A stretch of 62,258 nt of DNA from the IMG/VR virus record IMGVR_UViG_3300043428_000132, positions 1 through 62,258 of that record, one strand, 5' to 3'. This DNA is from a virus (lineage: Duplodnaviria > Caudoviricetes). Positions 18,288 to 53,555 of this stretch are shown in pieces (positions within the stretch are counted from its first letter, which is position 1; every line of letters begins with the position of its first letter). The notes beneath the pieces were generated by a model, which searched no databases, was not told where the DNA came from, and saw nothing but the letters and a program-made list of their open reading frames with translations. A program made the translations under genes and the position numbers.

Positions 18288-18388
18288 TATCACCCCTCTG
18301 ATAAAAAAACTTGCAAAGCGGTGTGAATCTGCGTTAAAGTATCACCACGGTGACAACAAAGGCACCGGGCAACACAGGAGAAAACGCA
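18288..18388 (+). promoter_or_regulatory. Early promoter with two operator-like palindromes and GGAGAAAACGCA RBS
   Basis: TATCACCCCTCTGATA 18288, TTGCAA-N18-TAAAGT, TATCACCACGGTGACA 18340, RBS 18377. Confidence 0.65.
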
Positions 18389-18535
18389 ATGAACCACCAC
18401 TCAATACACGCCGATGTTCGCAGCATCGAGCAAACGATGATCAACCGCCGCCCCACGCCCGTGCGTGATGTGGCGCTGGCCTTGGCGATCGGCCTTTCGC
18501 TGGCATGGATGCTGATCGAGGGCCTCACACGATGA
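18389..18535 (+). CDS. Small membrane protein
   Basis: ATG after conserved RBS; C-terminal hydrophobic helix. Confidence 0.65.
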   Translation: MNHHSIHADVRSIEQTMINRRPTPVRDVALALAIGLSLAWMLIEGLTR

Positions 18536-29516: not shown

Positions 29517-30881
29517 TCACTCTTCTTCGTTGGCCTCGATTGTCGGATCAGCGGCCACCGCAGAAGGATCGCCCTCGTCGTCTGCGGCCTCTTCGGGTGC
29601 AGGCGGCAGGCCAGCGATATCGCGCAAGTGATTCTCGAGATCACGGTCGGGGAACAGTTGCGCCCCGGCCCCGGTGAGCTTGCCGAGGAAGTCGCCCAAC
29701 TCAGAGAGGTTCGGCTTCTCGAGGTCGGCGGGCACCAGCTTGGGCATGTACTCATGCTCCATGCCGTTCAACTTCCAGAGGCGCGGGAGCAGGTGGCGGT
29801 TGAAGGTGTCGGCGATCTTCTGCGTGAATGCGCCCACCGCAGTGGCGAAGAGCGCCGTCTTGTCGCTCGAGAGGGCAAAGCTGCCGACCGATTGTTGGCC
29901 GAGGAAGATGAAATCGGCCAAGACCGAGGTGGCGATGGCGCGGTTGTAGCGATCAACGATCTTCGTGGTGTCGAAGGTTCGAGAGCCGCCGGTTGAAAGC
30001 AGCTTGATATCGAACATGAGTTGTCCGTGTGAGTCACGGTCAGAGGGCAGCAAAATGCCTTCTTGCTGGTCGCGGCGCACCTGAGTGATCAGGCGCTTCC
30101 ATGCCCCGAGGGTTTGCTTTTGCAGAGCATCGGCGCTCGGGTCGAAGTATTGGCCCGGGATGTAAGCCACCGGCAGGCCAGCCAGATCGCGCTCCACACC
30201 GATGCCCTCGATCTCTTCGATGCGCTTCTTGAAGTACCAAGGGCGGTACCCCGTCCGCAGGATCGAACGGCCTTCTGGGTTGTTGCGGGCGTCCACCGTG
30301 CGGAAGAGCAAGAGCTTCTCGATGGGGATCATCACCATCGGGCGGGCAATGGGCTGCTGCCACATGCCGTCGATCGAGCCATCCAGCGGATCGATCACCC
30401 ACTTCACGATCGTGTTCTGGGCACGCAGGGCGATGTTGCGGATGCCGATCTTGCCGTCGGTGTAGGCCGAGCGATTCGCGCCGTCGGTGGCGTCCGGGCC
30501 ACCGCGCTTCTTCCAGATGATCTCCATCGGCGCGTAGCCGTAGGTGAACATCGTGCAGGCCTCTTCGATCACGGTGCTGAATGGCACGCTCATGTCGGCG
30601 AACACCTCTTCAGCGAACGTCTTGGCATCCTCGGCCTCGATCGAGTCGTCGCAGGCTTGGAAGTTCCACTTGGCCTGCCGGATCAGCATCGTGATGGCGT
30701 AGAGCACGGCACCCACGATCGGGTCGTTGTCCTCCATCTCCCGGTAGGTTTTGGCCCCGTTCAGGCCCCGCAGTTCCTTGAGGAATTCTTCTGCGATGTA
30801 GCCGCCGTATTGGCGAAGGCCTGTGTCGCCCAGCGTCTCGGGGGAGAACACCAGCTTGTTCGGTTGCGCTTCTTCACTCAT
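29517..30881 (-). CDS. Portal protein (DUF935 / Mu gp29-like)
   Basis: Follows terminase; NNPEGRSILR..YRPWYFK; ERDLAGLPV. Confidence 0.9.
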   Translation of the reverse strand: MSEEAQPNKLVFSPETLGDTGLRQYGGYIAEEFLKELRGLNGAKTYREMEDNDPIVGAVLYAITMLIRQAKWNFQACDDSIEAEDAKTFAEEVFADMSVPFSTVIEEACTMFTYGYAPMEIIWKKRGGPDATDGANRSAYTDGKIGIRNIALRAQNTIVKWVIDPLDGSIDGMWQQPIARPMVMIPIEKLLLFRTVDARNNPEGRSILRTGYRPWYFKKRIEEIEGIGVERDLAGLPVAYIPGQYFDPSADALQKQTLGAWKRLITQVRRDQQEGILLPSDRDSHGQLMFDIKLLSTGGSRTFDTTKIVDRYNRAIATSVLADFIFLGQQSVGSFALSSDKTALFATAVGAFTQKIADTFNRHLLPRLWKLNGMEHEYMPKLVPADLEKPNLSELGDFLGKLTGAGAQLFPDRDLENHLRDIAGLPPAPEEAADDEGDPSAVAADPTIEANEEE

Positions 30882-32151
30882 CCTGATCTCCTGCGTTTTC
30901 AAAGGCCCCCAGCCAAGGGCTGATTCGGGCGAGGTTTGAGGGCTGTGCCCCGTACACCGACGGGTTCACGGCCCTAAGTTTTTCCACCGCGAGGGCCAAG
31001 GCCATCACGCAATCGTCGTGATAGCCCACGGGTGCCGAGTATCGGACACCGGTTCGCGTGTAGACGTACTCGAAGTTCTCCAACTCGGCCCGGATGGGGC
31101 CATCGGGGAACTTCACTAGGCCGGTTTGGATGGCGACAACGAGGCCTTCCATCAACCGTTGCTTGCTCGTTGCCGAGAACTTGAAGCCCTCGAACACGTT
31201 GTGGCGTTTCTTTTGCAGACGCTCGACCACCGGATCGCCCACCCCGGTGGAGTCAACGAGGGTGGGGGTGCGCCCCACAATCCCCAGAATTTTCGTCTCT
31301 GTGTCTTCCCACGGTGACTGCCAGCGCTCGAATCCGCAGGTGACGCCGTGCCGATCCAGCCCGATTGCCACGGCCCAATCGATGCTCTTGGCGAGGTCGA
31401 TGCCGATCGCGGCGGCGGGTGCGGTGGACATGGGAGCCACGCAGGCCCGGATGAAGGCCATGCCGAAGGGGTTGCCCTCGTCGTCGCTGGGTTCGGCCAA
31501 GTACAGTTCCCGGAACACGTTCTCGGGCAGCACGCGCTTGGCGTCCTCGATCTCCTTGATATCCAGCACGCCACCGGCAGCGGCGTCGTAGGCGTTGAGC
31601 TTGGCGTAGCTCATCCCCGGCTCACCGGCCTCGGCCTTGCGTGCCAGCTTGAAGTGCCAGTTGGTGCGGCCCTTCACGTTCCCGATGATCCTCACCTTGC
31701 CCTTGGTGGCGGTGAGCGTGGAGCGGACGGCAATCCACGATTCTTCCCGGCAGCGCGAGGCCTCATCGACCACGGCGGCGAAAACGTCCTCACCGTAGAG
31801 GTTGTCGGGCTTCTCAGCCGACTTGAACCACACCACCGCCCCATTGGGCAGTTCAAGGCTCATCTCGGTCTCGTTGGCCTTGAACATGGCCTTGGGCAGG
31901 CCGCGCTTAATGCGTCGGAAGGCAATCTTGGCCTGTGGGTAGACCGGAGCCACCCACCAGTAGTTCCGCCCCGGCTTGCCGTGGATGAAGGCCTGCTCCA
32001 TGAGCCATGCCATGCACCCTACGGTCTTGCCCGCCTTCGTGGAGGCCTCGATCAGCGCGTATCGGGCCGGGTTGCCCTCACAGTCCACGCAATCGAAGAT
32101 CGCCTCACGCTGGCGATCGTAGAGCCACGGGCGAACGTACTCAGCCCTCAC
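30874..32151 (-). CDS. terL: Terminase large subunit
   Basis: Walker A ASTKAGKT, Walker B VVDEA, nuclease IGIDLA..D and HDDCVMALAL. Confidence 0.93.
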   Translation of the reverse strand: MRAEYVRPWLYDRQREAIFDCVDCEGNPARYALIEASTKAGKTVGCMAWLMEQAFIHGKPGRNYWWVAPVYPQAKIAFRRIKRGLPKAMFKANETEMSLELPNGAVVWFKSAEKPDNLYGEDVFAAVVDEASRCREESWIAVRSTLTATKGKVRIIGNVKGRTNWHFKLARKAEAGEPGMSYAKLNAYDAAAGGVLDIKEIEDAKRVLPENVFRELYLAEPSDDEGNPFGMAFIRACVAPMSTAPAAAIGIDLAKSIDWAVAIGLDRHGVTCGFERWQSPWEDTETKILGIVGRTPTLVDSTGVGDPVVERLQKKRHNVFEGFKFSATSKQRLMEGLVVAIQTGLVKFPDGPIRAELENFEYVYTRTGVRYSAPVGYHDDCVMALALAVEKLRAVNPSVYGAQPSNLARISPWLGAFENAGDQDE

Positions 32152-32665: not shown

Positions 32666-32749
32666 TATCAGCCTATTGACACTTTCTCATTTCGACGGTG
32701 TAATATCACCACTGTGATACGGAAAGCACAGGAAACAGGAGAAAACGCA
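32666..32749 (+). promoter_or_regulatory. Early promoter with operator-like palindromes and GGAGAAAACGCA RBS
   Basis: TTGACA 32676, TGTAAT/TAATAT near 32699-32706, TATCACCACTGTGATA 32704, RBS 32738. Confidence 0.7.
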
Positions 32750-35276: not shown

Positions 35277-35728
35277 GAAAGCGCACCCGTCGCAAGGTCT
35301 GGAACCTGCTGAACCCCGTGCAGCACGCGATCGAGGGCGCGGCCTACGTGCCCGAGGCCCTGCTCGCGCCCCTGCGTCTGCGCGAACTCGCGGCGATAGA
35401 GGCTTTCCGCACCGGCACTGCCGGGTTGCATGAGTGGCACGATGTGAACGCGATGCACGGCCTGTGCGAGACGATGGCCCGGCAGGGCGTTGGCCCCGAG
35501 GCGCTTGAGGCCTGCGAACGTGCGGAGCACCACCTCATCGAGGCGGCACGTCGGTTCGAGAAGACCGGCAAGATGGGCATCAGCGGCCCGGGCTTGCAGG
35601 CGTTTCGCGATGTGTTCCAGTACCACGACCTGCAACGGCAAAGCGTGGCCCGGGCCACCTACGATCAAATGATCAGGCTCGCGACGGCCCGAATCCGATC
35701 ACAAGCCCCCGGCATCACCGTTCTTTGA
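35273..35728 (+). CDS. Phage hypothetical protein
   Basis: MRKRTRRKVW.L.NP..HAI.GA start recalled from proteobacterial phages. Confidence 0.65.
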   Translation: MRKRTRRKVWNLLNPVQHAIEGAAYVPEALLAPLRLRELAAIEAFRTGTAGLHEWHDVNAMHGLCETMARQGVGPEALEACERAEHHLIEAARRFEKTGKMGISGPGLQAFRDVFQYHDLQRQSVARATYDQMIRLATARIRSQAPGITVL

Positions 35729-37027
35729 GGCCTTGGCCTTTTTGGCCTTGGCTTGCTTTTTGTCCTGCTGCCCCTGCTGGTTCCCGACCAGCTTGCCCGG
35801 GGCACGCTCCCCCATCACCTCGGTGAAGGTGCGCCCGTCGGCCTCGAGGATGGCGTGCTGGCCCGTGAAGGCCTGCCAGCGCAACACCCCCACATCGACG
35901 TAGGCAGGCTCGAGTTCGAGCGCGTGGCAAGTGCGGCCCGTCATCTCGCACGCGATGATCGTGGTACCGGAGCCGGAGAACGGCTCATAGATGGCATGGC
36001 CCGGGCTTGAGTTGTTCTCGATCGGGCGCTTCATGGCATCGACGGGCTTCTGGGTACCGTGGCCGGTGTCGCTCTTGGCGTGATCGATCTGCCACACCGT
36101 CGTCTGCGAGCGATCGCCAGCCCAATGGCCGGTTGCGCCGTCGCGCACCACGTACCAAGCCGATTCATGCTGCGGGTGATAGTGGCCCCGCGAGAGCACC
36201 ATGCGGCTCTTGGCCCACACGATCTGAGCACGAATCTTGAAGTTCGCGGCGATCAGGCTGTCGGCCACCGTGTGCGCGTGGATCATGCCGTGCCACACAT
36301 AGGCCACATCCCCGGGGAAGAGCGCCCACGCCTCACGCCAGTCGGCGCGGTCGTCGTTCTGCACCTTACCCTCGGCACGCTTTGCGCCATCCTTGAGCGC
36401 CTTGGATCGCCAATCGGGGTCGTACTCCACGCCGTAGGGTGGGTCGGTCACCATCAGGTGAGGCTTCACGCCGTTCAAGGCCTTACTCACGGCGTCCGCG
36501 CTGGTTGAATCGCCGCACACCAGCCGGTGACGGCCCAGCACCCACACATCCCCGGGCACGGCTACGGGGAAGTCCGGGGTGGGCGGCACATCGTCGGGGT
36601 CGGTGTTGCCATCGGTGCCCAGCGGGGCCAGCAACTTGTCCAGTTCATCCACGCTGAAGCCGATCAGGCCGAGATCGAAGTTCGCGGTGTTGAGATCGGC
36701 CAACTCGAGGCGCAGGAGGTTCATGTCCCAGCCAGCGTTCTCGGCCAACTTGTTGTCGGCGATCACCAGTGCGCGGCGTTGCTCGGGCGAGAGGCCTTCG
36801 ATCGTGATCGTGGGCACATCGGCCATGCCCAGCTTCTGAGCCGCCATGAGCCGCCCGTGGCCCGCAATGATCTCGCCAGCCTCGTCGCACAGGATCGGGT
36901 TCGTCCAGCCCCATTCCTTGATCGCCGCCGCGATCTGCGCCACCTGAAGGTCGGAGTGAGTGCGCGAGTTCTGTGCGTAGGGCACAAGCGCGGCGACGGC
37001 GCGGTAGGTGACGGCGAGTTTTTGCAT
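35699..37027 (-). CDS. ParB-N domain fused to N6A/N4C DNA methyltransferase
   Basis: PYAQNSRTHS..IIAGHGR..ADNK; TDPPY; HGTQKP; EPFSGSGTT. Confidence 0.92.
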   Translation of the reverse strand: MQKLAVTYRAVAALVPYAQNSRTHSDLQVAQIAAAIKEWGWTNPILCDEAGEIIAGHGRLMAAQKLGMADVPTITIEGLSPEQRRALVIADNKLAENAGWDMNLLRLELADLNTANFDLGLIGFSVDELDKLLAPLGTDGNTDPDDVPPTPDFPVAVPGDVWVLGRHRLVCGDSTSADAVSKALNGVKPHLMVTDPPYGVEYDPDWRSKALKDGAKRAEGKVQNDDRADWREAWALFPGDVAYVWHGMIHAHTVADSLIAANFKIRAQIVWAKSRMVLSRGHYHPQHESAWYVVRDGATGHWAGDRSQTTVWQIDHAKSDTGHGTQKPVDAMKRPIENNSSPGHAIYEPFSGSGTTIIACEMTGRTCHALELEPAYVDVGVLRWQAFTGQHAILEADGRTFTEVMGERAPGKLVGNQQGQQDKKQAKAKKAKASKNGDAGGL

Positions 37028-37042
37028 CTTTTGGCTTGGCGT

Positions 37043-37067
37043 AAAAAAAGCGCCACGTGGGCGCTTT
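37043..37067 (-). terminator. Rho-independent terminator directly upstream of the methylase gene
   Basis: AAAGCGCC-CACGT-GGCGCTTT plus T run on minus strand. Confidence 0.75.
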
Positions 37068-37200
37068 GACATTGAATTGCCCCAAGGGGGGCCACCGAGC
37101 GGGAGGTTTGGGAGAAAACGCAGGGATCGCCCGGTGGCCTAAGCGCTCTTGCAAGCCCGGAGAAGCAACAACAACGCTGTGCCGCAATCGTATCGGCGAA
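37043..37200 (-). ncRNA. Candidate anti-RBS small RNA (5' end uncertain)
   Basis: 12-bp stem 37090-37101/37128-37139 with G-U pair on minus strand; loop UGCGUUUUCUCC antisense to the repeated RBS; ends in terminator. Confidence 0.55.
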
Positions 37201-37275
37201 TGAGTGCGCCGTGTGATGGAAATCTCATAGGCGTGATGAAAACCGATCTTTTTCCGTCTTTTTTGCTTTTTCCTC

Positions 37276-37369
37276 TTGATGGTTCTCACAGAAGTGATAC
37301 AGTCAAGCCATCGAAACACTTTTCCAAAAGTAGTTTCGGTGAAATTGATAACCAACCGGAGAAAACGCA
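37276..37369 (+). promoter_or_regulatory. Promoter/operator and GGAGAAAACGCA RBS
   Basis: AT-rich; TCTCACAGAAGTGATA 37284; RBS 37358. Confidence 0.6.
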
Positions 37370-38533
37370 ATGACCCACGTGATCGATCACACCAAAGGCC
37401 AGATGGTCGGTGCAGTGAGTGCCCAATGGGCCAGCCGCCCCGATGATCAGAAGTTCCTCAGCCTGAGCGAGCTTCGCGGCAAGGTGGCCCAATACGCCAC
37501 CGAAAGCCGCACCATCGATGTGCTGCCCCAAGAGATCGTCGCCAGCTACGACGCCGCCAACCCCTCGATCCTGCGCCTCGGCATGAACGGCTGCGCCGAC
37601 CTCGAGCCAACCCATTGGGGCTTCGATCAGATCGCTCGAGTGGCCGGTGCACCTGCCAGCTACCTGCGCGAGTTGCCCGGGCCTCTGGCTGCGCTGAACC
37701 TGAACTACGGCCTCAAGGTGGCCGATGCCAAGCCCGTGCAGGCCTACGTTCGCGAGAACGGCACCACCAGCCTGCGCGGCATCACCTCCACCAAGTACGG
37801 TCGCATCCTCGACCGCGATGTGGCCGATGCCGTGATCAACGTGGCAGGCGACGGCACGGGCGACACCCGCTGGAAGGTTCCCGGCGTGATCGAGTGGGGC
37901 AACAAGTTCGGGGTTTCCTACAACCCCAACGTGGATATCACCCGCGAGAACACCACGCTCTACGCCAGCGACCGCGATCTGTTCATCTTCCTCGTTGACG
38001 ACCTGAACCCGATCGAAGTGGGCAAGCTGGCGAACGGCCAGCCCGACCTCATGTTCCGGGGCTTCTACGTGTGGAACTCTGAGGTGGGTTCCCGCACCTA
38101 CGGCTTTGCCTCGATGTACCTGCGCGGCGTGTGCCAGAACCGCAACCTGTGGGGCGTGGAGGGCTTCAACGAGATCGTGTTCAAGCACACCTCGATGGCC
38201 CCCGAGCGCTTCGAGGTGGAAGCCGAGCCTGCGCTGGTGGAGTTTGCAGGCGGCTCGACCGACAAGGTTGTGAAGGGCGTTGCCGCTGCCAAGAAGGCGA
38301 TCGCAGCCAAGACCGACGAAGAGCGCCTCGAGTTCCTCGGCAAGCTGGGGTTCTCCCAGAAAGCGGCCAAGAACGTGATCGACACGGCATTGATCGAAGA
38401 GCAGTGCCCGCCCTCGAGCATGTGGGACTTTGCTCAGGCCATCAGCGCCAGCGCCCGCAAGCTGGATTTCCAAGATGCCCGCCTGAAGATGGAAGCCATC
38501 GCTGGTGCAGTTCTCGACAAGGTGGCCGCATGA
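37370..38533 (+). CDS. DUF932-like protein
   Basis: W.SRPDDQKFLSL, PTHW.F.Q, LYASDRD.F.FL, WNSEVG and VCQNR motifs. Confidence 0.8.
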   Translation: MTHVIDHTKGQMVGAVSAQWASRPDDQKFLSLSELRGKVAQYATESRTIDVLPQEIVASYDAANPSILRLGMNGCADLEPTHWGFDQIARVAGAPASYLRELPGPLAALNLNYGLKVADAKPVQAYVRENGTTSLRGITSTKYGRILDRDVADAVINVAGDGTGDTRWKVPGVIEWGNKFGVSYNPNVDITRENTTLYASDRDLFIFLVDDLNPIEVGKLANGQPDLMFRGFYVWNSEVGSRTYGFASMYLRGVCQNRNLWGVEGFNEIVFKHTSMAPERFEVEAEPALVEFAGGSTDKVVKGVAAAKKAIAAKTDEERLEFLGKLGFSQKAAKNVIDTALIEEQCPPSSMWDFAQAISASARKLDFQDARLKMEAIAGAVLDKVAA

Positions 38534-42005: not shown

Positions 42006-42880
42006 CACCCACCCCCCGCAGCCATCGGCAGGTACGACGGGTTGTTCTCGAGCATGTAGCGCTCGGTCGCGGTGAGCGGCCTGCCGTTCCACGTGCCGGT
42101 CGCAAGCGCCTGTTGGCGTGGATCGGTGGGCGTGAGCGGCTGATCATCCCAGCGGCCTTGGTTCAGCCACGTGGTGGGGTGGGCGATGTACTGCGGGTCT
42201 TTGGTGGCGTTGGCGATGGCAAAGGCGTTCGCGGCCTGCGTGAGGCGATCGGCAGCATCGGGGGAGCCGATCAACTTCACGGCCCGCTCGAAGGCCTTGG
42301 CGGCGGCGAGCTTGCCTTCACGGCGTGGGTATGCGGCCCAGAAGAGTTCGAAGCCCTTCGGCAGCTTGGCCGTAGGTTTCGACACACGCTCCCCCTTGGG
42401 GGTAGGGGGTGTTTCAGGAATCAGTGAATCAGGAATCAGTGAATCAGGATTCAGGGTGTTAGGGACTGGTTTCTTAACAGTTAAACCACTGTTGGCAGAC
42501 TGTTGTTCACCTGTGATGTAACCGTTTTTGCCACGTTGGTGAACTGTGAGGCACCCGTTTGCATCAGGCAGTTCACTGTCGCGCTCTGTGCCATGAGGGG
42601 TTTGGTGCTTCGCGAAGTTCACCACTTGGATGATCGAAACACCTCCAACGGTGTACCGCTGGATGAAGCCGTGGGCTTCCAGTTCATCCAGCAACTCGAC
42701 CACATCGATGTTGTCGAAGGGCAGAAGTTCGAGCTTGATGCGCTTGGGCCGATCCTCGAGCCGCCCTTCACGGTCGGCGAGGCACCACAAGCCCACGAAG
42801 AGCAGCCGGGTGCTGGGCGACAACTCGGCCAACACCTCGTTCTTGAAGAACCCGGGTTTGATGTTGCGTGCCCGTGCCAT
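42005..42880 (-). CDS. Phage replication initiation protein
   Basis: MARARNIKPGFF..LW..ADREGR; C-terminal FW.AYPR..K..A and HPTTWLNQ.RW.D. Confidence 0.88.
   Translation of the reverse strand: MARARNIKPGFFKNEVLAELSPSTRLLFVGLWCLADREGRLEDRPKRIKLELLPFDNIDVVELLDELEAHGFIQRYTVGGVSIIQVVNFAKHQTPHGTERDSELPDANGCLTVHQRGKNGYITGEQQSANSGLTVKKPVPNTLNPDSLIPDSLIPETPPTPKGERVSKPTAKLPKGFELFWAAYPRREGKLAAAKAFERAVKLIGSPDAADRLTQAANAFAIANATKDPQYIAHPTTWLNQGRWDDQPLTPTDPRQQALATGTWNGRPLTATERYMLENNPSYLPMAAGGG
42414..42590. repeat. Putative replication origin with iteron-like repeats inside the initiator gene
   Basis: TCAGGAATCAGTGAA x2 plus a partial third copy; AT-rich TTAACAGTTAA; several ACTGT motifs. Confidence 0.5.
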
Positions 42881-42960
42881 CAGACGGCCCCCCTTGGGCG
42901 GCGTCGGCGCGAGCAAAGCCTGTGCGAACTGGCCCGATAGGCCAGCGGATGTGATTGCAT
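42880..42960 (-). CDS. 26-aa leader peptide coupled to the initiator gene
   Basis: GGAGGTT RBS, ATG 42960, TGATG overlap with initiator start. Confidence 0.5.
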   Translation of the reverse strand: MQSHPLAYRASSHRLCSRRRRPRGAV

Positions 42961-42988
42961 GGCAACCTCCAAAGCCTCCACAAAAGGA

Positions 42989-43053
42989 TTCGCAGGGCAG
43001 GCGGGAGGTTCGCTCTTCAGCCCGGGGAGCTACCCCGGGCCTAGCCCTGCGAA
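42989..43053 (-). ncRNA. c4/CI-like structured antisense RNA
   Basis: Perfect 10-bp closing stem, 8-bp inner hairpin, second loop AACCUCC complementary to RBS at 42964-42970. Confidence 0.55.
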
Positions 43054-43235
43054 AGACGCACTTGCTGCATTGGACGCAACAAGCAGTTACCGTTTCGGGT
43101 GATGCTCACGTATCATGCTTGCGATACTTTGGTGCATCGGCAATGAGGTGATGTTGAGCACACCCGAGGGGCCGACTGTATCACCGGAATGAGAATCCCG
43201 ACCACTTTGTGCGACCAAAAGTGGTGTTCTTTGCG

Positions 43236-43663: not shown

Positions 43664-44284
43664 ATGGCAACCTCCAAAGACACGGCCAAGGTTGTGGCCC
43701 TTAAGCGGTTCATGGAAACGCAAGGGCTAAAGCCTCACCCGTGGGCGCAAGCCGCTGGCCTTCGCAGCAGCACGCTTTACAACTTCCTCTCTGGAAAGTC
43801 TCTGAGCCTCTCTGGCGATACCCTCGAGCGTTTGGCGAAGGCCGCTGGCAGTACGGTGGACGAGATTCTCTCGGGAGAGAAGACCAACAACATCAAGCGT
43901 GGAAGCCCCGTTTCCGTGCCGTACACGGTCGGGGTGTACGGGAGGCTTTTTGAGATGGATCGTCCTTTGCAGGTGCAACGGCCCGCAGGAGTGCCCGATG
44001 AAGTCGAAGTTCTCGCGGCTCGCATTGACGGCGATGGCCTTCACCCGGTACCGGGTGGCTGGCTTGTGTACTTTGAGGCCCTGCCTCGAGATGCCGAGAC
44101 TTTGATCGGCAAGCTGTGCGTGGTTCAGGTGGCAGGAGGCCAGCGCCTGATCCGCGAGATTCGCAAGGGCCAGAACCCCGGCCTCTACACGCTGCTTTCG
44201 TGGTCGGCAAGCCCAATGGAGAACGCGCAGGTGCAAGCGGCGCACTTGGTGATATCGATCGCGCAGATCACCATTCCAGTGTGA
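43664..44284 (+). CDS. CI-like repressor (HTH + degenerate S24 domain)
   Basis: N-terminal XRE HTH; C-terminal GDGLHP where GDSMxP is expected. Confidence 0.75.
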   Translation: MATSKDTAKVVALKRFMETQGLKPHPWAQAAGLRSSTLYNFLSGKSLSLSGDTLERLAKAAGSTVDEILSGEKTNNIKRGSPVSVPYTVGVYGRLFEMDRPLQVQRPAGVPDEVEVLAARIDGDGLHPVPGGWLVYFEALPRDAETLIGKLCVVQVAGGQRLIREIRKGQNPGLYTLLSWSASPMENAQVQAAHLVISIAQITIPV

Positions 44285-44310: not shown

Positions 44311-44395
44311 TATCACCGAAAGGATAAAAACAGCTTGTAGGGTATCACCGCGATGATATAGTTCTTCCTGTCAACAATGACATGGAGAAAACGCA
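44311..44395 (+). promoter_or_regulatory. Early promoter with two operator-like palindromes and GGAGAAAACGCA RBS
   Basis: TATCACCGAAAGGATA 44311, TTGTAG-N16-TATAGT, TATCACCGCGATGATA 44343, RBS 44384. Confidence 0.7.
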
Positions 44396-50226: not shown

Positions 50227-50252
50227 ACCATCAACTAAGTGGAGAAGACGCA

Positions 50253-51556: not shown

Positions 51557-51862
51557 ATGCAAGAGCAAACCACCCCCCAACCCGTGATCGCCTTCACCGA
51601 CCTGTCGATCGATGAGGCCAATGCGATCTTCGCGGCATTGGATCAATCCGAACTGCCGCACAAGATCGTGACCCGCCTCGTTGCCAAGCTGGTGGCGCAA
51701 GCGAACGCGCAACTGAATCCTGCGCCTGCTCAAAGCGCACAAAGCGCACAAGACGCACAAAGCGCACAAAGCGCACAAGGCGCTGCCGAGCCTCCCCAAA
51801 CTCCTGCTGGTGAAAATGGCGAGACGGAGGTACCGGCTCCCGGCCTCAGCGACCCCGAGTAA
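51557..51862 (+). CDS. Hypothetical protein with AQS repeat tail
   Basis: RBS; 9-bp CAAAGCGCA tandem at about 51731-51780. Confidence 0.65.
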   Translation: MQEQTTPQPVIAFTDLSIDEANAIFAALDQSELPHKIVTRLVAKLVAQANAQLNPAPAQSAQSAQDAQSAQSAQGAAEPPQTPAGENGETEVPAPGLSDPE

Positions 51863-53166: not shown

Positions 53167-53555
53167 GGCACACACTCGCACAGTTTTGACCGGGCCAAAA
53201 CCCTGCGCTGTGGACAAGCTGTTGATCCGCAAGCGCAAGTCGGCTGTGGAAAACCGGTGAACCAAGGCTCAAACGGTCTTGAAATCCTCCCGGCGGTATC
53301 ATCAGCGTGAGAGTTTCTCGGTGGAGTGGCCGAGCGGTTTAAGGCAGCGCTCTTGAAAAGCGCCGAAGTTTCAACGACTTCCGTGGGTTCGAATCCCACC
53401 TCCACCGCCATCACCAGAAGCGCAATCTGCGTCGCCTGCGTATCATCACTCGCACAAACCCTCGCACAAGCCAGCTTGTCGGGGGTTTTTTCATGGGTTT
53501 CTATCCAGCCTCGCACACTGTGCGGCACAAAAGCGTGCTCAAGGGGTAGGCACAA
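53167..53555. promoter_or_regulatory. attP region with arm-type direct repeats
   Basis: CTCGCACA at 53175, 53449, 53461, 53510; GGCACA variants at 53167, 53524, 53549; flank the tRNA just downstream of int. Confidence 0.65.
53320..53410 (+). tRNA. tRNA-Ser (anticodon TGA)
   Basis: Acceptor GGTGGAG/CTCCACC, anticodon arm GCGCT-CTTGAAA-AGCGC, long variable arm, GGTTCGAATCC, G discriminator, CCA. Confidence 0.95.

Follow-up and report, generated by a model that had tools for sequence, protein, structure and literature searches.

A methylase-leader RNA as a candidate translational regulator of several early operons in an uncultured freshwater phage

In an uncultured freshwater phage, the minus-strand leader of a DNA methyltransferase gene contains a hairpin whose loop sequence, UGCGUUUUCUCC, is the exact complement of four ribosome-binding sites (RBSs). 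Judged from sequence comparison, the arrangement as a whole is probably, though by a wide way not certainly, explained by a minus-strand methylase-leader RNA whose loop would pair with early-operon initiation regions and block their translation. A sequence-only reading had proposed that one small RNA silences several dispersed early operons. The comparisons described here partly support that interpretation, and they strongly support the predicted pairing relation between leader and RBS. In this phage, the minus-strand leader is probably also a terminated small RNA, and in related phages the RNA may often be only a 5' untranslated region.

The window, meaning the whole stretch of DNA that was analysed, is a complete virus genome of 62,258 bp with direct terminal repeats and 61% G+C. 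Most structural genes lie on the minus strand. Four plus-strand gene blocks start at approximately 18389, 32751, 37370, and 44398, and upstream of each lies a sigma-70-like promoter bearing one or two 16-bp palindromes of the form TATCAC-N4-GTGATA. This operator type also occurs in five related records, and a reversed control pattern gave no matches. A CI-like helix-turn-helix (HTH) protein is encoded at 43664-44284. Directly downstream of this repressor gene lies the RecE/YqaJ-like exonuclease gene, which has two operators upstream. The methylase gene is divergent from the DUF932-like gene at 37370, and its product matches Pfam PF01555 (5.6e-17), PF02195 weakly, and phrog_498 (3.4e-138). The features considered here are listed in Table 1.

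Table 1. Coordinates of the leader element, its gene, and its proposed targets in the window
Feature	Position	Strand	Basis or remark
ParB-N-domain / N6-N4 DNA methyltransferase gene (ATG 37027)	35699..37027	-	Pfam, phrog
Intrinsic-terminator-like hairpin GCGCC-CACGU-GGCGC + U7	37043..37067	-	sequence, looser scan
GGCCCCCCUUGGG, between hairpin and terminator, overlapping the stem	37081..37093	-	complementary to 13 nt at replication-initiator RBS; tentative
Hairpin, 12-bp stem (37090-37101/37128-37139) and 26-nt loop	37090..37139	-	sequence and minus-strand fold
Second loop segment AACCUCC	37102..37108	-	complementary to replication-leader-peptide RBS
Main candidate anti-RBS seed UGCGUUUUCUCC in the loop, complement of the shared 12-mer	37111..37122	-	sequence, fold
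Promoter-like TTGATG-16-TACAGT of the divergent early operon	37276..37303	+	sequence scan
Operator TCTCACAGAAGTGATA overlapping the TTGATG-16-TACAGT promoter	37284-37299	+	sequence
Proposed target RBS, first gene (48 aa, ATG 18389), operator-bearing promoter	18377..18388	+	motif position
Proposed target RBS, first gene (69 aa, ATG 32751), operator-bearing promoter	32738..32749	+	motif position
Proposed target RBS, 387-aa DUF932-like gene (ATG 37370)	37358..37369	+	motif position
Proposed target RBS, RecE/YqaJ-like exonuclease gene (GTG 44398)	44384..44395	+	motif position
One-mismatch copy GGAGAAGACGCA, RBS of a 117-aa gene (start 50253)	50241..50252	+	motif position
CCCAAGGGGGGCC at replication-initiator RBS (ATG 42880)	42886..42898	-	complementary to GGCCCCCCUUGGG; possible second site
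GGAGGUU, RBS of replication-operon leader peptide	42964..42970	-	complementary to AACCUCC; possible target

The shared 12-mer GGAGAAAACGCA occurs exactly at 18377, 32738, 37111, 37358, and 44384, and a copy with one mismatch starts at 50241. All six lie on the plus strand, each at the place previously claimed for it. No other 12-mer is as frequent in the genome. A search of the whole record gave five forward matches, with none in the reverse orientation and none for the control. The six copies compare with a dinucleotide-shuffle mean of 0.37 (maximum 2), and none of 100 shuffles reached six. In five of them (18377, 32738, 37358, 44384, and 50241), an ATG or GTG follows within 0-2 nt; the copy at 37111 has no start codon after it. 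The spacer part of the shared RBS motif is AAAACGCA. The four exact copies that are first-gene RBSs lie 34-89 nt downstream of TATCAC-N4-GTGATA-like operators. An operator is absent upstream of the 50241 site, where the mismatch would form a U.G pair. A simple duplex-energy ranking of the loop against 2853 candidate starts placed the four exact sites only 12th to 21st. GC-rich spurious duplexes score higher, and a ranking of this kind discriminates usefully only if accessibility and a real gene list are taken into account.

Repeated boundary motifs may also arise without function. The copies could be remnants of duplicated promoter-RBS modules or of junction recombination, with the copy in the loop being accidental. 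Mosaic phage genomes carry short shared boundary sequences, and in a close relative, the IMG/VR record G001, the gene behind one copy of the 12-mer is a different gene. This explanation is nevertheless very improbable, given that the sequence flanks of the copies are unrelated to each other and that independent lineage-specific matches occur in 14 lineages and at further operons, as described below. The conservation of the motif itself also argues against it. G001, whose DUF932-like protein is 95% identical to that of the window, carries the same 12-mer five times at homologous places. Across these five copies, 0 of 60 motif positions differ between the two genomes, compared with 30 of 150 positions in the upstream 30 nt, in an ungapped flank comparison in which one site is inflated by an indel.

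The same relative delimits the element. The hairpin and the terminator are each 92% identical in G001, whereas the adjacent spacers reach 60-77% and the DNA upstream of the hairpin (37140-37260) 67-74%. The conserved unit is thus approximately 37139-37043. The hairpin stems are identical in G001, which provides the only close pair. An exact 19-nt stem probe of IMG/VR found only G001, a blastn search with the leader matched one of five related complete genomes, and a search of a phage collection returned methylase-coding matches only.

On the minus strand, the hairpin folds as a continuous 12-bp stem with a G-U pair at 37131/37098, a place where the plus strand is broken by A.C. Sequence and folds therefore confirm an earlier description of this structure, which had reported a 12-bp stem, a 26-nt loop, and full pairing on the minus strand only. 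The fold of the hairpin core is of modest stability, with a z-score of -2.41 and 6 of 200 shuffles folding as well. Fold energies favour neither strand across 16 leaders, where the minus-minus-plus difference in minimum free energy (MFE) spans -14.5 to +11.8 kcal/mol and a trend is absent. Besides the main seed, the loop exposes AACCUCC, which is complementary to GGAGGTT at 42970-42964, as had been reported. A third anti-Shine-Dalgarno segment, UUGCUUCUCC (37168-37159), is likewise present, but its proposed role as a seed found no support: an RBS partner was not found, and it sits in a poorly conserved part (74% identity to G001, compared with 92% for the hairpin). It was dropped for these two reasons. 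An antiterminator was also considered, as AAGAGCGCUU would pair with the 3' arm of the terminator in the fold; it is not conserved in G001 and was dropped.

The terminator previously placed at 37043-37067 is visible in the sequence, with its GCGCC/GGCGC stem extended by A-U pairs, and was recovered by a looser terminator scan; a stricter consensus scan of 36000-38500 called neither promoters nor terminators. Its end lies 15 nt before the methylase ATG, which makes the 37139-37043 element the 5' leader of the methylase gene. Any promoter of the methylase can only lie upstream of the element, and hence the minus-strand sequence is in RNA whenever the gene's own promoter is used. Among 16 related leaders, this terminator scan detected a terminator-like hairpin with a U-run on the minus strand in seven and on the plus strand in none. 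It found no clear terminator in the remaining nine, of which two (L006 and L014) appear terminator-like by eye. The minus-only terminators and the position upstream of a minus-strand gene place the anti-RBS sequence in RNA, and the nine leaders indicate that a free small RNA is not general among these phages.

Promoter evidence is divided between the window and its relatives. Near the element, consensus and looser promoter scans found no minus-strand sigma-70-like promoter with a good -10. The looser promoter scan returned two promoter-like matches: a minus-strand candidate, TTGACT-16-AACCAT, which is poor, is not conserved in G001, and was rejected, and the plus-strand promoter. Several relatives have TTGTGC-N17-GATAAA-like minus-strand promoters, read by eye, that are overlapped by the operator. 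This overlap of a divergent minus-strand promoter with the operator suggests that in such phages the RNA would be induced together with the early genes.

Metatranscriptome data provide further indications about the transcript. Contigs were available from two RNA runs and represent a relative 90-95% identical to the window; such contigs show neither strand nor true ends. One RNA-library contig (X23) covers 36899-37146, that is, the methylase 5' end, the terminator, and the hairpin. In both runs, a contig begins exactly at 37333, and 37147-37332 has no RNA contig in either. A DNA-run contig spans 36905-37389. Together, these boundaries give a weak hint of transcripts starting near 37146 and 37333. 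An RNA of approximately 150-200 nt had been proposed; conservation and the RNA-library contig suggest instead a core of approximately 100 nt (37139-37043). Separately, run X14 is probably DNA.

The close association of the element with the methylase gene raises the possibility of a reversed or purely cis-acting arrangement. Here, the hairpin would be an attenuator-type leader of the methylase, and abundant early mRNAs would pair with its loop and act on the methylase mRNA through termination, stability, or translation. In that case, the early operons would be the signal and the methylase the regulated gene. Several observations fit this scenario. The element immediately precedes the methylase ATG in every syntenic lineage, the terminator is located within the methylase leader, and in several lineages lacking a terminator the leader runs on into the gene. 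Moreover, the RNA-library contig links the hairpin to the 5' coding region, and the methylase start has little or no Shine-Dalgarno (SD) sequence. Set against these, an identical extended RBS of 9-12 nt at three to five dispersed operon heads would be a heavy constraint to maintain for one gene. Complementarity between the loop and the methylase's own initiation region is absent, and the antiterminator pairing seen in the fold of the window is not conserved in G001. We consider such a reversed arrangement unlikely, yet the most credible of the alternatives to a trans-acting leader RNA.

The strongest evidence for pairing between leader and RBS comes from comparison across lineages. Among 26 viral loci, 16 have the order methylase, leader, operators, and DUF932-like gene; among 32 metagenome loci, seven do, comprising three new lineages and four duplicates of viral contigs. 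Leaders of distant lineages cannot be aligned with that of the window, and a search for a consensus structure over eight hairpin segments gave nothing alignable and no pairs. On the minus strand, each distant leader nevertheless contains a stretch rich in C and U that usually falls within a hairpin loop, and loops of 26-28 nt occur in the window and in L010, L007, L076, and L008. Covariation was scored by taking the 150-nt leader RNA and positions -25 to -1 of the cognate DUF932-like gene and finding their longest exact complementary stretch. The sample comprised 14 non-redundant lineages, after exclusion of L006; L012, L009, L013, L060, L062, L066, and L092; L018; L063; and L019 as near-duplicates or leaderless. 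With segment lengths that were chosen after the pattern had been seen, the cognate sum was 126, compared with 86.8 +/- 5.3 for permuted assignments, and none of 200,000 permutations reached 126. A same-sense control showed no excess (78 compared with 80.2). A reversed-sequence control was slightly raised, at 90 compared with 83.7, with 10,877 of 200,000 permutations at or above the observed value. The sequence-only reading had asked for covariation of loop and RBS in relatives, and across these 14 lineages the outcome is strongly positive.

The matches between leader and DUF932 RBS extend beyond the SD core in a lineage-specific manner. The longest are 12 nt, in the window (GGAGAAAACGCA) and in L076 (ACCACGGAGCCA). 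Matches of 11 nt occur in L010 (AGGAGAAGCAG), L008 (GGAGAAAGCCA), and L064 (GCCAAGAGGAG), and matches of 9 nt in L014 (GGAGAGAAC) and L061 (GGAGAAAGC). A further group of lineages has common GGAGGAAG-type matches of 8 nt. Three lineages fit poorly, namely L017, with a longest match of 5 nt, and L020 and L030, with 7 nt each.

Complementarity is not confined to the neighbouring operon. When the other operator-proximal first genes of six genomes were compared with the DUF932 RBS excluded, the cognate leader assignment ranked first among all 720 permutations. The leader loop of G002, the L010 genome, contains AGGAGAAGCA(G), which recurs at three post-operator gene starts (21393, 39238, and 47723), with shorter copies at four more starts. 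GGAGAAAGC is found at four starts in G006, and GGAGGAAA at four operator-proximal starts in G004. G003 carries GGAGAGAA at four starts and in the leader, and GGAGAGAG in two places, the first-gene RBS and the terminator-hairpin loop of the leader. Methylase genes of this type were also sampled from other phage contexts as a control. Of 46 ParB-methylase loci, the 27 whose match begins within the first 15 residues were examined; one lacked a start codon, leaving 26, and L094 was omitted because it duplicates G001. All 26 lack a CU-core repeat of at least 9 nt beside a divergent start codon, so the leader/RBS repeat is not general to such methylase genes.

A shared sequence may alternatively be recognised by a protein. 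A phage protein could bind the motif, either in double-stranded DNA or in plus-strand RNA, with the leader copy acting as a decoy or autoregulatory site and with no pairing between RNAs. The copy in the loop has the same sense as the RBSs, and the hairpin loop on the plus strand holds several GGA motifs, whose resemblance to CsrA/RsmA sites we assume here. In addition, two comparisons gave no positive sign of RNA pairing, namely the strand energies given above and a G-U-tolerant extension of the pairing. The latter was unsupported, with sums of 128 for Watson-Crick pairs, 140 when G-U was allowed, and 158 for an A-C control; the purine-rich composition renders this wobble-asymmetry test uninformative. 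A protein site is improbable in view of the remaining data. Its specificity would need a matched change in each of seven or more lineages, and CsrA-type recognition leaves the covarying spacer bases unexplained. In every case the site takes in the SD and stops 0-2 nt short of the start codon, which fits a function at the RNA level. The leader copy is in the non-template sense for a plus-strand RNA, terminators are minus-only, and 37147-37332 is devoid of RNA contigs. Finally, the copy lies consistently in the loop or in an unpaired stretch of the minus-strand fold.

The favoured mechanism is one of a leader RNA acting in trans. The course of events that we infer, from the start of transcription and the efficiency of termination to in vivo pairing, the direction of the effect, and its role, would be as follows. 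Transcription would start upstream of the ParB-methylase gene and produce an RNA with 37139-37043 as its conserved core. In this phage, transcription would probably stop in most cases at the terminator, 15 nt short of the methylase start codon, giving an RNA of approximately 100 nt or somewhat more, and read-through of the terminator would yield the methylase mRNA. The large hairpin loop would expose UGCGUUUUCUCC and AACCUCC and base-pair in trans with the initiation regions of the CI-operator-controlled first genes at 18389, 32751, 37370, and 44398. Weaker pairing may occur with the 50253 gene and the replication operon. Such pairing would block 30S binding, so that early protein synthesis would be capped or delayed. 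The role could be that of a threshold against leaky early expression or of a timed shut-off. If the RNA is induced with its targets, as the operators on both divergent promoters of relatives suggest, a threshold or pulse-limiting role would fit better than expression in the lysogen.

Within the replication operon, two sites are possible additional targets. The first is the RBS of the leader peptide, in a leader that carries its own AACCUCCCGC (43010-43001). The second is the RBS of the gene at 42880, a replication initiation protein (phrog_16167); 12 of the 13 nt of its complement are kept in G001 within a diverged context. Four other chance matches of 12-14 nt occur between leader and genome, and since such chance matches do occur, the replication-operon targets are regarded as tentative.

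Two features of trans-acting small RNAs were found in the leader, namely covarying complementarity to the initiation regions of the proposed targets and an intrinsic terminator-like hairpin of its own. The best point of comparison is the c4 RNA of phages P1 and P7. It controls a single operon (ant) and is cut from a transcript shared with its target, whose sites lie downstream of the RNA in that operon. According to a published account, c4 is a short structured RNA whose loops pair with the ribosome-binding region of the target and block its translation, and changes matched between RNA and target determine its specificity, which results in heteroimmunity (PMC12197685). The phage leader resembles c4 in having a loop complementary to an RBS region and a specificity that appears to be set by matched changes. 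It differs from c4 in being the leader of a methylase gene and in its proposed targets, which comprise four or more dispersed operons with other promoters, mostly on the opposite strand and up to 19 kb away. We read the arrangement as a c4-like phage antisense control reaching several operons, which would be new relative to c4. To our knowledge, the known phage antisense RNAs (c4, sar, OOP, and P4 CI) each control one gene or operon. Our literature search, in which subscription journals were incompletely covered, returned no account of a phage RNA directed against the RBSs of several operons. The source cited for c4 also presents P22 sar and lambda OOP as small phage RNAs that lower the expression of early regulatory genes by pairing with mRNA (PMC12197685). 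Those RNAs are transcribed opposite to their target and overlap it, in contrast to the leader described here, which is intergenic and overlaps none of its proposed targets.

Searches of Rfam, through which novelty was to be judged, found no family for the element at the gathering threshold or at E-values up to 10. At the gathering threshold, the whole window gave one tRNA only. The C4 family had no match in the whole window at that threshold and none in 36900-37450 at E-values up to 10. By E-value, the scan of 36900-37450 returned chance-level matches only, to RF00519 and to a eukaryotic lncRNA model. RF00519 (mmgR/suhB) aligns weakly with minus 37036-37137, at 14.7 bits compared with a gathering threshold of 41 (E = 2.3), and the element is not a member of this family.

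Anti-SD loops are nonetheless familiar from bacterial chromosomes. In alphaproteobacterial mmgR/suhB and in staphylococcal RsaE and RNAIII, a C/U-rich loop pairs with the SDs of several mRNAs and is followed by an intrinsic terminator. The phage leader likewise has a C/U-rich anti-SD hairpin loop and a terminator. Those RNAs are chromosomal and mainly address the SD core, whereas the phage leader matches an extended, phage-specific RBS. A functional analogue on the phage side is RegA of T4, a protein of loose sequence specificity that shuts off the translation of many early mRNAs by binding their initiation regions. One phage product would act on many early initiation regions in either case; RegA is a protein, and the agent proposed here is an RNA that matches 9-12 nt exactly and in a lineage-specific way. 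The doubling of a terminated leader as a trans regulator also has precedents. SreA and SreB of Listeria are terminated riboswitch leaders that act in trans. The leader proposed here would share this terminated form and trans action with SreA and SreB and also with IsrK of Gifsy-1, for which a further source describes a dual form, a terminated leader RNA and a read-through mRNA (PMC4825925). It differs from SreA and SreB in that its targets would be the phage's own early operons, and neither a ligand-sensing domain nor an Rfam riboswitch was found in it.

At the level of the whole group, a broader proposition can be formulated, which we hold to be quite possible but somewhat short of likely. 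In a freshwater family of temperate-type phages, one methylase-leader RNA would read the phage-specific extended RBS code of every repressor-controlled early operon. It would thereby form a second layer of control, potentially with heteroimmunity, and co-evolve with four to six targets. If this is true, a single RNA sets the translation of all repressor-controlled early operons through a co-evolving RBS extension, and the early genes of a phage can be placed under an RBS code private to that phage. Operator-based transcriptional control and RNA-based post-transcriptional control would then share one regulon. The system would extend the c4 principle to several operons and be the RNA equivalent of T4 RegA. 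Such regulons would also be findable from sequence alone, as a loop copy of an over-represented RBS k-mer. The compact and orthogonal RNA/RBS pairs, of which the relatives offer at least seven distinct ones, would lend themselves to direct testing in reporter systems.

As a separate observation on the distribution of these lineages, a scan of genome contigs returned one 7.6-kb MAG contig of the L012 lineage, which is labelled Gammaproteobacteria bacterium.

The leader of the replication operon and the hairpin loop of the methylase leader, which lies 5' of the ParB-domain DNA methylase gene, have the 10-mer GCGGGAGGTT in common, and the replication-operon leader is kept in the close relative G001. 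An anti-SD of its own, AACCUCCCGC, is also found in this leader, approximately 35 nt upstream of GGAGGUU. The latter motif is the RBS of a short ORF whose stop codon overlaps the ATG of the replication-initiator gene (TGATG). The same leader, which is on the other strand, also contains a second copy of ATGGCAACCTCCAAAG, the initial 16 nt of the CI-like repressor gene.

Resemblance to the methylase-leader loop extends to the RBS region of a late gene encoding 454 aa, GAAAACGCAGGAG; the stretch in common with the loop is 11 nt long in the window and 9 nt long in G001. This likeness may reflect chance or an additional target. In L107, a ParB-methylase locus from another phage, the methylase leader displays CCGCG-UCCUUCCUCA-CGCGG, a small hairpin whose loop is an anti-SD; a search of L107 for a divergent RBS matching this loop by at least 9 nt found none.

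Contigs from two independent RNA libraries, derived from a close relative, begin at exactly the same position; the predicted start of the plus-strand transcript lies about 22 nt upstream of it. The shared contig start may represent a processed 5' end.

Positions of the features discussed (window coordinates unless stated)
Feature	Position	Strand
RBS region of late gene	30881-30907	-
First position of RNA contigs	37333	
Replication-operon leader	42880-43060	-
ATGGCAACCTCCAAAG, second copy	42959-42974	
RBS of short ORF	42970-42964	-
Anti-SD of replication-operon leader	43010-43001	-
ATGGCAACCTCCAAAG, repressor gene start	43664-43679	
CAAAGCGCACAA array	51731-51778	
CAAAGCGCACAA copies	51731, 51740, 51758, 51767	
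tRNA gene	53320-53407	
Methylase leader of L107	L107:700-856	

Four copies of CAAAGCGCACAA, spaced by 9 or 18 nt, form an iteron-like array, which may serve as an origin or for binding of a protein. Roughly 50 nt upstream of a tRNA gene (Rfam, 58.8 bits) lies an operator-like palindrome, and the whole record of G005, a related 65-kb phage, holds nine sites of the palindromic 12-mer CTCGAGCTCGAG.
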